This document shows positions 17,860-62,201 of a stretch of 64,000 bases of DNA, in pieces. The stretch lies in the sequence record PV730302.1. One strand, written 5' to 3'. Source of the stretch: a phage. The notes beneath the pieces were generated by a model that saw only the letters and a list, made by a program, of their open reading frames with translations, was not told where the DNA came from and made no database searches. A program made the translations under genes and the position numbers. The stretch's first letter is position 1. The number at the start of each line of letters is the position of its first letter.

Positions 17860-18123
17860 TTATTTCATATTATTGAAATAATCTTCCGCATCAAAATCGT
17901 TATCATGGTAAACTTTGGTAGACGATTTGGCGTAGCCTTCAGCTGAGAACATATTAATCACAACTTTAATTGTATACCACTGTCCATCTTCATTACCCAT
18001 TACTGCATAGGTTTCATACACTGGGTGTTCAGGACCGATAACTTTAATATCGTTAACTGTAGCACCAAATTCTTCCGGAACACATTTCATAAAGAAATTA
18101 AACACTTCACCATAATTATCCAT
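17860..18123 (-). CDS. hypothetical protein
   Basis: start set at MDNYGEV (SD AAGGAG); promoter cassette upstream. Confidence 0.5.
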   Translation of the reverse strand: MDNYGEVFNFFMKCVPEEFGATVNDIKVIGPEHPVYETYAVMGNEDGQWYTIKVVINMFSAEGYAKSSTKVYHDNDFDAEDYFNNMK

Positions 18124-18147: not shown

Positions 18148-18188
18148 TTGATAGGTCTATAGTATCATGTTCTACGAAAGAGTAAACA
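18148..18188 (-). promoter_or_regulatory. early promoter/stem-loop cassette (core TTGATAGGTCTATAGTATCA on plus strand)
   Basis: minus sense GTTTAC-N17-TACTAT with TGn extended -10. Confidence 0.65.
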
Positions 18189-18217
18189 TCTTTTTTAAAC
18201 TTTTTAGAAACAAAAAA

Positions 18218-18239
18218 GGCCCAACCTTTCGGAAGGGCC
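18218..18239 (-). terminator. intrinsic terminator hairpin GGCCC-UU-CC-GAAA-GG-UU-GGGCC plus U-run (minus sense)
   Basis: follows stop of ORF 18245-18820; A-run on plus strand 18212-18217. Confidence 0.6.
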
Positions 18240-18244
18240 TAGAA

Positions 18245-18820
18245 TCAGTTCTTGTAGAACCGGAACGGGTTTACATGGAAGGCTAACATGGCCTTAGGGA
18301 TTTTACGAGACAAAAGGCTCTTAAGCTTCCAACCACAGTACACGCGAAGGTAAAAGGTAATCCCACCAACCTTAAGATATGGAACTGAAGCAAATACACC
18401 CCAGGCGTCGTCATTCCACATCCATAACCACCCGTGATGAGCTTTATCAGGAGAACCGGATTCAACGTCAGGATTACCACGATAATGGAATTCTGAGCTA
18501 CAATCACGACCGAGTTTATGGTAAGCAAAGTTATAAGCTTTATTTCGCCATAGCCAAGCTACTCTCTGGAGATAAACACCACCTGGCATTTTCCTGATTT
18601 TAGCCCAACGTTTAATGTGACCTTTGTCACCGTCAATTGGATTATCGTATGTCATCATCCAATCAAAGCCATAAGGCAATTTACCGGTCTTTTTATTGTG
18701 GAAAGGAACTACAAAAGGCGCAAGGATAACAGCCAGAACCATAGAGATAAAATCCAGTGGAACCAACAGAACCCAACTCAAATATTTTAAAAGTTTCATA
18801 TATTTCTCTAATTTAACCAA
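18245..18820 (-). CDS. membrane protein (hypothetical)
   Basis: 191 aa; N-terminal TM helices; Trp-rich C-terminal domain. Confidence 0.55.
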   Translation of the reverse strand: MVKLEKYMKLLKYLSWVLLVPLDFISMVLAVILAPFVVPFHNKKTGKLPYGFDWMMTYDNPIDGDKGHIKRWAKIRKMPGGVYLQRVAWLWRNKAYNFAYHKLGRDCSSEFHYRGNPDVESGSPDKAHHGWLWMWNDDAWGVFASVPYLKVGGITFYLRVYCGWKLKSLLSRKIPKAMLAFHVNPFRFYKN

Positions 18821-18821
18821 A

Positions 18822-18841
18822 AAAGCCCCAGATGGGGCTTT
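18822..18841 (-). terminator. intrinsic terminator AAAGCCCC-AUCU-GGGGCUUUUUU (minus sense)
   Basis: hairpin plus U-run directly after stop of ORF 18844-19308. Confidence 0.65.
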
Positions 18842-18843
18842 CG

Positions 18844-19308
18844 TTATTTGATTTGTTTAGCAGACCAGATACGGTCTTTGATGATTTTCTGAATATCTTC
18901 AACATACTCTAAGTCGTGAGCATGCGGATTATCTTTGAAGCTATGTGCTCGTGCTAGTTTCTGGCCTTCTGTTTTGATTACTAAAAGCTCTTTAAGAATT
19001 GCTTCATACTTAGAAATAATTCCTTTGGCGATATTTTTTTCTTGAGCGGCTTTAGGGTCTGCTTTTGTAGCAGGTGCTTTACCTGTAGCTTTCTGGAACA
19101 ATTCACCTGATGCAGCTAGGCTTTTAAAAACTCGGCTAACAGTATTAGCATTAGTAAAACCTTCGGCTTTAAAATCTCTAATAAAACGGAAACGTTCTTC
19201 ATCAGAGGCGTCTTTGTAAGAATATTTACCTGCTTGAATTGCTGCAATCGCAGCGGCTTTTACATCTGAACTAGATTGTTCAGTCAAAAATTCATTGTAA
19301 GTTTTCAT
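18844..19308 (-). CDS. internal-protein-like (CTS MKTYNEFLTE)
   Basis: 154 aa; N-terminal CTS-like decapeptide. Confidence 0.65.
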   Translation of the reverse strand: MKTYNEFLTEQSSSDVKAAAIAAIQAGKYSYKDASDEERFRFIRDFKAEGFTNANTVSRVFKSLAASGELFQKATGKAPATKADPKAAQEKNIAKGIISKYEAILKELLVIKTEGQKLARAHSFKDNPHAHDLEYVEDIQKIIKDRIWSAKQIK

Positions 19309-19353
19309 TATTATTTCCTAAGTTAATTAACTTATCTATTTATTATGCCAAAA

Positions 19354-19377
19354 AGCCCCAACCTTTCGGAAGGGGCT
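19354..19377 (-). terminator. intrinsic terminator hairpin, compensatory variant of the 18218 hairpin
   Basis: AGCCCC-AA-CC-TTTC-GG-AA-GGGGCT on plus strand with A-run upstream (U-run in minus sense); closes the tRNA region. Confidence 0.55.
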
Positions 19378-19758
19378 ATGCCTTGCGGCAACCTTGTCGG
19401 GGTTCCACCTGCTAGGCAAGTGTTTGTACGAAACGCCGGGATTCGAACCCGGTTATTAAGTAGTTGACGCTACTCAATATTTTTAAAAGGCCATATCTCG
19501 ACCATATCCGAACGTTCCGTCAAAAACGCTACTCGGCTTACGGCAAAGATATTTCCTCGAATCGATAATTCGGTGCGCCGTTTCTGCTGTGATGTAAGGG
19601 GACGTTAACAGATCGTAAAGATTTGTTAATGTCAGTCCTTATTCAGGGAACATCAGTCCGACGACTTACCGGTAGCGACCCGGTTTCTTGTTTGGTGCGC
19701 CGGTGAATGCTGGTAATCAGTCTTCATACGACGGCTTGACTATATAATAGTCTTCATT

Positions 19759-19833
19759 TGGTATCCCGCCCTGGGATCGAACCAGGACCGCAAACTTAGA
19801 AGGATCGTATGCTATCCATTACACCAGCGGGAC
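19759..19833 (-). tRNA. tRNA-Arg (anticodon TCT), CCA encoded
   Basis: manual fold of minus strand: 7-bp acceptor stem, T-loop TTCGATC, anticodon loop CTTCTAA. Confidence 0.85.
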
Positions 19834-19838
19834 ATAGT

Positions 19839-19915
19839 TGGTGACCCGGACCAGATTTGAACTGGTAACCTTTCCCTTATGAGGGGACTGCTTCTAACCA
19901 TTGAGCTACAGGGCC
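19839..19915 (-). tRNA. tRNA with CAT anticodon (elongator Met or lysidine-type Ile), CCA encoded
   Basis: manual fold: acceptor GGCCCTG, T-arm ACCAG-TTCAAAT-CTGGT, anticodon loop CTCATAA; 5 nt from tRNA-Arg. Confidence 0.8.
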
Positions 19916-57208: not shown

Positions 57209-57224
57209 GGGACCTCACGGTCCC
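57209..57224. terminator. bidirectional terminator hairpin GGGACC-TCAC-GGTCCC between 24 and rnlB
   Basis: flanked by A-run upstream and T-run downstream. Confidence 0.65.
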
Positions 57225-58564: not shown

Positions 58565-58649
58565 AACAATTCTCTCGTTGAGTTGGTAAACCCATCTTAA
58601 CATAGGATTTTTAACTTGTAAACAGGAATTTTGTACTTTAATGCAAAAT

Positions 58650-58663
58650 GGGCCGAAAGGCCC
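58650..58663 (-). terminator. terminator hairpin GGGCC-UUUCG-GCCC plus U-rich tract (minus sense) after hoc
   Basis: directly downstream of hoc stop. Confidence 0.55.
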
Positions 58664-58667
58664 ATAA

Positions 58668-60253: not shown

Positions 60254-61750
60254 ATGCAAATTCAAGTACATTTTGATAATTTTAGTCATGTCCGTATCGA
60301 GTGTGATGAATCCACATTCTACGAACTCAGAGACTATTTTAGCTTTGAAGCTGATGGATATAAATTCAACCCTAAATTTCGTTATGGGCAATGGGATGGG
60401 CGTATTCGTCTTCTAGATTATAACCGTAAACTGCCTTATGGACTTGTCCCTCAAATTAAAAAGTTCGCCGAACAATTTGAATATTCTCTGTGGATTGACC
60501 CACGTATTCTTGAACAGGAAGATATTTCTCGTGAAGATTTTGACTCATGGGTTGCTTCTCAAGAAATTTATTCAGGGTCTACCAAGATTGAGCCTCATTG
60601 GTATCAGAATGAAGCCGTATACAACGGCCTGACAAAACGACGCGCAATTCTGAATTTACCTACATCCGCAGGTAAATCATTGATTCAGGCGCTCCTGAGT
60701 CGATATTACGTTGAGAACTACGAAGGTAAAATCCTTATTCTGGTTCCTACTACTGCACTTGTCGACCAGATGATTAATGACTTCATCGATTATCGATTGT
60801 TCCCTAAAGCAGCAATGCTTGGTATTCGTTCAGGTACTGCTCGTGATTCTGATGCAATGATTTACGTTTCAACTTATCAAACTGCTATCAAGCAACCTAA
60901 AGAATGGTTTGCTCAGTTTGGTATGTTTATGAACGACGAATGCCATTTGGCTACAGGTAAATCTATTTCTACTATCATCGAAGGCCTAACCAACTGTATG
61001 TTTAAATTCGGTTTGTCTGGTTCTTTAAAAGATGGTAAAGCTAATTTAATGCAATATATGGGTTTGTTTGGTGATGTGTTTAAGCCGGTATCCACTTCCC
61101 AATTAATGGAAGAAGGACAGGTTACTGACCTTAAAATCAACAGTATTTTCCTTCGATACCCAGACGAATTCACTGTTAAGATGAAAGGTAAAGATTACCA
61201 ATCAGAAATTAAAGTCATTACTAAGGCTACTCGTCGTAATAAATGGGTTGCTAATTTAGCTGTTAAACTCGCTAAGAAAGAAGAGAACGTATTCCTGATG
61301 TTTAAAAACATCGAACACGGTAAAACTCTTTTTGAAATGGTTAAAGAGCAACATAAAGAAGTTTATTACGTATCAGGTGAAGTTAATACCGAAACGCGTA
61401 ATGCTCTGAAAGTAATGGCGGAAAATGGTAAGGGTATTATTGTTGTGGCAAGTTATGGTGTGTTCTCTACTGGTATTTCCGTTAAGAACCTTCACCACGT
61501 TGTATTTGCCCATCCAGTAAAATCTAAAATCATTGTACTCCAGACAATTGGTCGTGTACTCCGTAAACATGCCTCTAAATCAACAGCACAGGTGTGGGAT
61601 ATCATCGACGACATGGGTGTTAAGCCTAAATCAGCTACGGCTAAAAAGAAATATGTTCATTTGAACTACGCCCTCAAACACGCTTTAGAACGTATTCAAC
61701 GTTATGCTGATGAGAAATTTAATTACGTAATGAAACAGGTGGATTTATGA
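60254..61750 (+). CDS. uvsW: UvsW RNA-DNA and DNA-DNA helicase
   Basis: 498 aa; helicase motifs LNLPTSAGKS and MNDECH; strong match to remembered T4 UvsW. Confidence 0.95.
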   Translation: MQIQVHFDNFSHVRIECDESTFYELRDYFSFEADGYKFNPKFRYGQWDGRIRLLDYNRKLPYGLVPQIKKFAEQFEYSLWIDPRILEQEDISREDFDSWVASQEIYSGSTKIEPHWYQNEAVYNGLTKRRAILNLPTSAGKSLIQALLSRYYVENYEGKILILVPTTALVDQMINDFIDYRLFPKAAMLGIRSGTARDSDAMIYVSTYQTAIKQPKEWFAQFGMFMNDECHLATGKSISTIIEGLTNCMFKFGLSGSLKDGKANLMQYMGLFGDVFKPVSTSQLMEEGQVTDLKINSIFLRYPDEFTVKMKGKDYQSEIKVITKATRRNKWVANLAVKLAKKEENVFLMFKNIEHGKTLFEMVKEQHKEVYYVSGEVNTETRNALKVMAENGKGIIVVASYGVFSTGISVKNLHHVVFAHPVKSKIIVLQTIGRVLRKHASKSTAQVWDIIDDMGVKPKSATAKKKYVHLNYALKHALERIQRYADEKFNYVMKQVDL

Positions 61751-61974
61751 AAACCTTTAAAGAAGTTATTCAAGAAGCATCTATTGAAAGCTTCATGGCT
61801 AAAATTGGTTCTTGTCAGACTATGGATGGTCTGAAGGAATTGGAAAAGTATTACAAAACTCGTAGTAAGGAAGCTGAACTTCGTGATTCGGATGATATTA
61901 GCGTGCGCGATGCATTGGCTGGTAAGAGAGCTGAATTGGAGTCGATGGACGACGAGGAAGAGGAAGATTTCTAA
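61747..61974 (+). CDS. uvsW.1: UvsW.1-like small acidic protein
   Basis: 75 aa overlapping uvsW stop; N-terminus MKTFKEVIQE resembles the capsid targeting sequence. Confidence 0.7.
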   Translation: MKTFKEVIQEASIESFMAKIGSCQTMDGLKELEKYYKTRSKEAELRDSDDISVRDALAGKRAELESMDDEEEEDF

Positions 61975-61982
61975 ACAAAAAA

Positions 61983-62004
61983 GGCCCAACCTTTCGGAAG
62001 GGCC
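61983..62004 (-). terminator. terminator hairpin GGCCC..GAAA..GGGCC plus U-run (minus sense), identical to 18218-18239
   Basis: 22-mer identical to the copy at 18218; A-run on plus strand upstream. Confidence 0.55.
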
Positions 62005-62027
62005 AATAACCATAAATGGCTATACAC

Positions 62028-62201
62028 ACTAGACTAAAGTAGTAATTGGGTTTCGTTCAGCTGTTCTTCAGTGTTTTCCGTAACCGGCAAGCTTTGAACG
62101 TAATTATAACATGAGCCCGGATGAACCGGACCTTTTTCTGTTTCAACAACCAATGCAGCATCGATTGGAGTTTTACAGACAACGCAAATCTTATCTGACA
62201 T
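62028..62201 (-). CDS. small Cys-containing protein (uvsY-upstream ORF)
   Basis: 57 aa, own translation MSDKICVVCKTPIDAALVVETEKGPVHPGSCYNY...; not in ORF track. Confidence 0.4.

Follow-up and report, generated by a model that had tools for sequence, protein, structure and literature searches.

The same short GC-rich inverted repeat occurs three times in the stretch of phage DNA analysed here, a window of 64,000 nucleotides that is 96-99% identical to the Dhakavirus coliphages 04086, UGJNEcP3, QL01 and WG01 and related to JS10 and JS98 (Tevenvirinae, T4 family), which raises the question of what this hairpin does, how its copies are related and why two of them flank genes that come and go among close relatives. 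A search of the whole window places the exact 22-mer GGCCCAACCTTTCGGAAGGGCC at positions 18218-18239 (copy 1) and 61983-62004 (copy 3), in agreement with a sequence-only reading that had reported an identical 22-mer at two sites, and finds a third member, GCCCCAACCTTTCGGAAGGGGC, at 19355-19376 (copy 2), with two mismatches to GGCCCAACCTTTCGGAAGGGCC. A looser family pattern run over the 64 kb window returns three members at the same three sites, and none of 100 dinucleotide-preserving shuffles contains any match to the repeat, so that chance copies are not expected. Read from the raw sequence, the identity of copies 1 and 3 extends to 32 nt (AAACAAAAAAGGCCC...GGGCC) and takes in the U-tract.

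Hairpin structure and position in the transcription units

In minus-sense RNA, copies 1 and 3 fold as GGCCC-UU-CC-GAAA-GG-UU-GGGCC with a predicted free energy of -13.9 kcal/mol for the 22-mer, which reproduces the GAAA-capped, U-run-flanked hairpin described from the sequence. Five G-C pairs form the base and two C-G pairs the top, while the U.U positions stay unpaired, resulting in a stem of 5+2 bp around a 2x2 U.U/U.U internal loop. Relative to its sister copies, copy 2 has stem positions 2 and 21 changed from G-C to C-G; pairing is retained, just as had been claimed for a GGCCC/GGGCC to GCCCC/GGGGC exchange, and the form common to all copies is SSCCC-UU-CC-GAAA-GG-UU-GGGSS. The span of 19354-19377 originally given to copy 2 equals 19355-19376 plus one A/T on each side, a potential extra A-U pair. 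By sequence and predicted fold, the loop is a GNRA tetraloop closed by a C-G pair, C(GAAA)G, in all three copies, and the hairpin persists in folds of 86-96 nt contexts. The stem is followed on its 3' side by UUUUUUGUUU at copies 1 and 3 and by UUUUUGG at copy 2, that is, by runs of five to six U.

Gene names around copies 1 and 2 were assigned through the annotation of JS10 and T4, and the order along the minus strand is tRNA(CAU), tRNA-Arg, rnaD, rnaC, copy 2, ORF154, an unrelated terminator, ORF184, copy 1, an early-type promoter and e.8. Copy 1 (minus strand, with the UUUUUUGUUU U-tract at 18208..18217) lies 5 nt past the stop codon of the cassette gene ORF184 (18245..18799, minus; DUF7338, PHROG 2143). 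Thirty-one nucleotides downstream of it is a T4-early-type promoter-like site (18159..18186, minus; TTTACT-N16-TACTAT with a TG two bases upstream of the -10 element), which has homologous sequence in T4, where the early consensus is TTTACW-N17-TAYWAT (PMC4122927), and stands ahead of the 87-aa e.8 homologue (17860..18123, minus), the gene at which conservation resumes downstream of the variable cassettes. Upstream of ORF184 lies a second, unrelated terminator-like hairpin (18819..18838, minus; GCCCC-AUCU-GGGGC followed by U6), which separates it from the cassette gene ORF154 (18844..19308, minus; PHROG 2280). Copy 2 (minus, U5 tract at 19350-19354) is found about 50 nt beyond the 3' end of the rnaC homologue (19565-19427, minus), and its transcription unit includes, further upstream, the rnaD homologue (approximately 19692-19572, minus) and the genes for tRNA-Arg(UCU) and a CAU-anticodon tRNA (19759..19915, minus). 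Finally, copy 3 (minus, U-tract at 61973-61982) follows the stop codon of the 55-aa uvsY.-2 homologue (62034..62201, minus) by 29 nt and faces the convergent 75-aa uvsW.1 homologue (61747..61974, plus), whose stop codon is 8 nt from the hairpin and overlaps the complement of the U-tract. Gene-to-hairpin spacing is thus 5-50 nt, always on the minus strand, and the earlier statement that every copy sits right after a minus-strand gene holds for copies 1 and 3, whereas copy 2 stands behind a stable-RNA cluster (tRNA, rnaD, rnaC) rather than a protein gene.

All three sites therefore share the sequence features of an intrinsic terminator, namely a GC-rich hairpin, an adjacent U-tract, an intergenic position and the orientation of the transcribed strand. 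From these features, together with the predicted fold and the orthology set out below, we infer that the three copies are very probably Rho-independent terminators of minus-strand units acting on the host RNA polymerase. The nascent RNA would form the GC-clamped hairpin with its GAAA cap, the U-tract would weaken the RNA-DNA hybrid and the E. coli RNA polymerase would let the transcript go. At copy 2 this would terminate the tRNA/rnaD/rnaC stable-RNA operon, at copy 3 the uvsY/uvsY.-2 unit ahead of a collision with uvsW.1, and copy 1 would shield the e.8 early promoter from upstream transcription. An equivalent hairpin is labelled 'putative transcriptional terminator (ARNOLD)' in the public record MK373785.1. 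A standard terminator scan of the window missed all three copies, because it disallows the internal U.U loop, and a fold-based scan was written in its place. Rfam, at gathering as well as permissive thresholds, returns no match at the hairpins, rnaC or rnaD, the two tRNAs being the only matches. Searches of the literature for mapped transcript 3' ends or for read-through measurements found none for this phage, for T4 or for other T4-type phages, and nothing that could be used on T4 tetraloop terminators.

The hairpins could instead serve mainly as 3'-end stabilisers or processing signals, protecting against exonucleases or offering an RNase site rather than stopping the polymerase. GNRA-capped GC hairpins are indeed very stable (PMC4371310), and copy 2 lies within the trailer of a precursor that needs processing into rnaC, rnaD and tRNAs; however, each of the copies and orthologues is directly adjoined by a U-run, where an element that only conferred stability would need none, and the two roles are not exclusive, as a terminator hairpin also protects the 3' end. 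We consider a mainly stabilising role improbable. Two further candidates were discarded. A bidirectional terminator at copy 3 would require a U-run on the plus strand as well, where the hairpin (-12.6 kcal/mol) is followed by AAUAACC, and a REP- or MITE-like mobile dispersed repeat does not fit a family of only three copies, two of them at sites where T4 has orthologous hairpins.

Stable tetraloop hairpins are a known feature of T4 intercistronic RNA, which has UUCG and GNRA loops, and T4 mRNA is where the UUCG tetraloop originally came to attention (PMC4371310). The likeness to the present hairpins lies in the C(GAAA)G loop, and the window also has UUCG and GUGA loops; the T4 work, in contrast, concerns loop thermodynamics (PMC4371310) rather than a whole hairpin repeated as a module. 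On the minus strand, the fold-based scan additionally picked up strong terminator-like hairpins with U-runs at 2474-2493 (GGUCUCAC-UUCG-GUGGGACC), 57209-57224 (GGGACC-GUGA-GGUCCC) and 58649-58664 (UGGGCC-UUUC-GGCCCA), and a tetraloop cap appears to be the norm among the terminators of this phage genome. Small hairpins also accompany two of the copies on the same strand. Copy 2 is preceded by a GNRA mini-hairpin, UGCC-GCAA-GGCA (19379-19390), and copy 3 has AUAGCCAUUUAUGGUUAU immediately upstream (62012-62030), a place where other genera have small hairpins of different sequence (AACCAACUUGUUGGUU, GCCACUUGUGGU), which suggests, as far as sequence can tell, that a tandem-hairpin arrangement is conserved at the copy 3 site.

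The stable-RNA genes upstream of copy 2 deserve mention in their own right, since rnaC and rnaD are present here, with 98% and 85% identity to T4, and carry no annotation in the closest public records. The body of rnaC is deleted in JS98-like, vB_EcoM_005-like and IME341-like contigs, in which only the last 25 nt or so of the trailer is left before the hairpin. Between tRNA-Arg and the rnaD homologue, the window has about 58 nt more than T4 (19693-19758, minus), and within this extra stretch AUGAAGACU is repeated and the rnaD-ending motif GGCGCACCAAA occurs for a second time. The tRNA at 19839-19915 (minus) is called tRNA-Met (anticodon CAT) by ARAGORN and is 97% identical to a T4 gene annotated as tRNA-Ile (locus L003, 2961-3034); judging from sequence, this CAU-anticodon tRNA is probably a lysidine-type tRNA-Ile rather than a tRNA-Met.

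Orthologous hairpins in T4 and its relatives

A search for the module in related genomes, which the sequence-only reading had proposed, finds hairpins at the orthologous sites in T4 and in T4-like relatives, and near-identical T4 hairpins with U-runs at two of these sites strengthen the case for the predicted terminator identity. At the post-rnaC site, T4 has GCCCCGACCGAAAGGTTGGGGC followed by T5 in the same place and behind a nearly identical trailer (approximately 98%). The T4 hairpin shares with copy 2 its position, the outer stem GCCCC/GGGGC, the CC-GAAA-GG top and the U5 tract, and differs from it in having GA opposite UU (G.U + A-U), which yields a continuous 9-bp stem of -18.2 kcal/mol as opposed to the UU/UU loop and -13.9 kcal/mol of the window. 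Between uvsY.-2 and uvsW, T4 has GGCCCTTCC-TTTTT-GGTTGGGCC followed by T6; here the site, the stem GGCCC-UU-CC...GG-UU-GGGCC with its tandem U.U and the U6 tract are shared with copy 3, and the difference lies in the loop, which is UUUUU in T4, GAAA in the window and UUUU, UUAC, UUAU, UUUC or A7 in other genera. The GGCCC/GCCCC difference is thus, on this comparison, an old one between two paralogous terminators that were already separate in T4, and did not arise within the present genome.

At the same time, the sites of the Dhakavirus lineage all share the inner sequence UUCC-GAAA-GGUU, which combines the U.U of the T4 uvsY.-2 site with the GAAA of the T4 rnaC site. This shared inner sequence indicates copying or gene conversion between sites some 43 kb apart. 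In the history that we favour, copies 2 and 3 would have descended from the hairpins found at the same sites in T4, the inner 12 nt would have been homogenised in the Dhakavirus lineage, presumably by gene conversion, and copy 1 would have arisen with the insertion of gene cassettes into the interval from the rnaC terminator to the e.8 promoter.

Independent convergence would dispense with such a history, the three copies resembling one another only because there are few ways to build a strong, short terminator, and about 20 metagenomic viral contigs, apparently unrelated, that combine the 18-nt core with outer stems of other sequence speak for it. Yet copies 1 and 3 are identical through the U-tract and beyond, the two orthologous sites of T4 differ in loop and inner stem whereas the Dhakavirus sites agree in both, and in Tequatrovirus relatives both of the cassette-flanking copies carry the GA variant specific to that lineage. 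Convergence is accordingly very hard to credit, and the reused module that the sequence-only reading had put forward draws support from the 32-nt identity and from relatives whose inserted cassettes are each flanked by this hairpin.

Was the structure itself under selection, as had also been suggested? Each of the 25 T4-like contigs compared has a hairpin with a T-run behind uvsY.-2; in most of them SSCCC-UU-CC/GG-UU-GGGSS is retained, the loop being GAAA, UUUU, UUUUU, UUAC, UUAU or A7 and pair 2/21 G-C in some lineages and C-G in others, and four carry a different hairpin, GCCCCUC-loop-GAGGGGC. Pairs were then counted over 12 distinct family members, for which loops were cut to 4 nt beforehand since MAFFT misaligned hairpins with loops of 5-7 nt. 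Paired states occupy 85% of the cells, much more than in slid controls; pair 2/21 is C-G in nine members, G-C in three and broken in none, pair 5/18 includes one G.U, and pairs 6/17 and 7/16 form only in the GA and AG variants. An IMG/VR search with an rnaC 3' motif gave only five loci, and protein-anchored loci were used instead. Pair 2/21 flips and is never half-changed, other changes lead to G.U, and some genera have replacement hairpins, a pattern consistent with selection on the stem; support for this part of the earlier interpretation is modest, amounting to one covarying pair among related sequences.

The tandem U.U mismatch

The internal loop is a costly element, as predicted folding puts the tandem U.U at about 4.6 kcal/mol relative to a paired AA/UU version. 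In IMG/VR, the U.U core with a GAAA loop is nevertheless found in 63 stretches, against 10, 6 and 8 for three Watson-Crick versions, all counts being inflated by relatedness. The 63 stretches represent 37 flank types, of which about 20 lie outside this T4-like group, and in the contigs outside the group most flank types extend the 18-nt core by complementary outer sequence giving 2-8 pairs, with a T-run behind it. With UUUC as its loop, the U.U stem accounts for a further 47 IMG/VR stretches, also inflated by relatedness and frequently flanked on either side by A- and T-runs (loci L005-L067 and L105-L176 cover the U.U core as a whole). Other T4-like genera carry this UUUC version several times per genome, with up to three in several contigs of 174-180 kb, T4-like in size. 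An AA/AA scan had been intended as a negative control and was dropped, for its reverse complement is that same UUUC-loop U.U stem, common in other T4-like genera.

It is conceivable, if rather unlikely, that the U.U stem (SCCC-UU-CC / GG-UU-GGGS) is a selected module across the T4 superfamily and beyond. Were this true, it would imply a function beyond hairpin stability, for instance protein recognition, service as a portable recombination linker that moves cassettes, or avoidance of a perfect DNA palindrome. The first of these can be taken further, to a stem in which the tandem U.U (T.T/A.A in DNA) is primarily the recognition site of a phage or host protein, for example a factor in recombination or homing or a regulator that binds RNA, and termination is secondary. 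Such a role would account for the persistence of the U.U/U.U loop at the uvsY.-2 site in different genera, where the terminal loop varies freely, and for a mismatched core that IMG/VR contains 4-10 times as often as three fully paired versions, albeit with counts inflated by related genomes; Arbiol et al. have likewise speculated that PeSL stems are protein targets (PMC2839356). Against it, the T4-like orthologues at the rnaC site tolerate GA or AG, which pair with the opposite UU, some genera have a wholly different hairpin at the uvsY.-2 site, and a candidate protein is not known. We give a primary recognition function the lowest probability of all the readings considered, and retain termination as the probable main role of the hairpin.

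Cassette turnover around copies 1 and 2

The part of the genome that holds copies 1 and 2 is hyperplastic, and both copies sit at junctions where close relatives differ by insertion, deletion or replacement. Of the 767 phage records with a match, no more than 12 span 80% or more of the 2.2 kb that surround these two copies; copy 3 lies in a conserved region free of cassette turnover. T4 has a single hairpin here and no ORF154. Tequatrovirus relatives have rnaC, a hairpin, an ORF154 homologue and a second hairpin, the two being the GA-type copies mentioned above. JS98-like phages have the order hairpin, TATAAATA, ORF184, hairpin, TATAAATA and ORF205, followed by another terminator, ORF205 belonging to the same PHROG as ORF154. 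The window reads hairpin, ORF154, terminator, ORF184, hairpin, and the gene order is therefore swapped between the two. In QL01, a 5' UTR of the ORF184 type is joined to the coding sequence of ORF154. The edges of one such event can be seen in a blastn alignment, where T4 positions 92-435 and 401-961 align on either side of a relative's ORF154 cassette with a 35-nt overlap that is exactly the hairpin repeat; from its sequence, this overlap is most simply read as the footprint either of direct-repeat recombination or of the insertion of a gene-plus-terminator unit. One IME341-like contig (L074) loses window positions 18297-18782, an indel that is not hairpin-bounded, and other mechanisms must therefore act too.

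The repeat-bounded indels and the mosaic gene order invite comparison with the PeSL stem-loops, which have been described as effective terminators directly ahead of T4-early promoters and as agents of modular shuffling that give rise to mini-circles (PMC2839356, Arbiol et al. 2010; PMC4122927, Comeau et al. 2014). Copy 1 resembles a PeSL in its predicted succession of terminator stem-loop, AT-rich stretch, T4-early-type promoter, SD and ATG, and copies 1 and 2 together bracket ORFs that are inserted, deleted or reordered among close relatives. Unlike a PeSL, however, copy 2 is followed by a late-promoter-like TAATAAATA instead of an early promoter, copy 3 lacks a promoter and faces a convergent gene in a conserved region, and Dhakavirus genomes have two to four copies each (three in the window) where PeSLs number in the dozens. 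We therefore treat the repeat as one that would work like a PeSL, and do not class all three copies as PeSLs. Because the repeat flanks cassettes, we infer, with somewhat better than even confidence, a secondary role as a short homology patch for cassette turnover, in which recombination at the repeat would permit cassettes to be inserted, deleted and reordered in the style of PeSL shuffling.

The unit that is repeated may be longer than the hairpin. In JS98-like phages, each copy leads directly into TATAAATA, the consensus of T4 late promoters, and a shared 5' UTR (L073, 2596-2635 and 3218-3259), and an imperfect version of that motif, TAATAAATA, stands behind copy 2 of the window (19310-19349, minus); the repeat unit may thus comprise terminator, late promoter, UTR and first codons. 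The cassette proteins themselves begin alike, as ORF154 starts with MKTYNEFLTE and the K/A/P-rich ORF205 of JS98-like phages (L073, 3260-3877) with MKTYNEFLNE, and both are assigned to PHROG 2280, of unknown function, with no Pfam match for either. Their N-termini resemble the start of the T4 internal protein IPI (MKTFKEF...) and the capsid-targeting sequence MKTYQEFIAE, which ends in L/I-x-E. On this likeness, ORF154 and ORF205 are probably internal proteins of the head whose genes travel on the shuffled cassettes.

Taken together, the repeat is very probably a lineage-specific version of known T4-family terminators, of an ordinary kind, that is reused around shuffled cassettes. For annotation, it places the putative ends of three transcription units in a group of phages for which most records have no regulatory features. 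For evolution, it offers a clean, small case from T4-type phages in which cassettes lying between short terminator repeats are gained, lost and reordered, with a likely internal head protein among the genes so shuffled, and it supports the existing picture of PeSL-mediated modular shuffling without changing it. The conserved tandem U.U is the one element here that could lead to something new.
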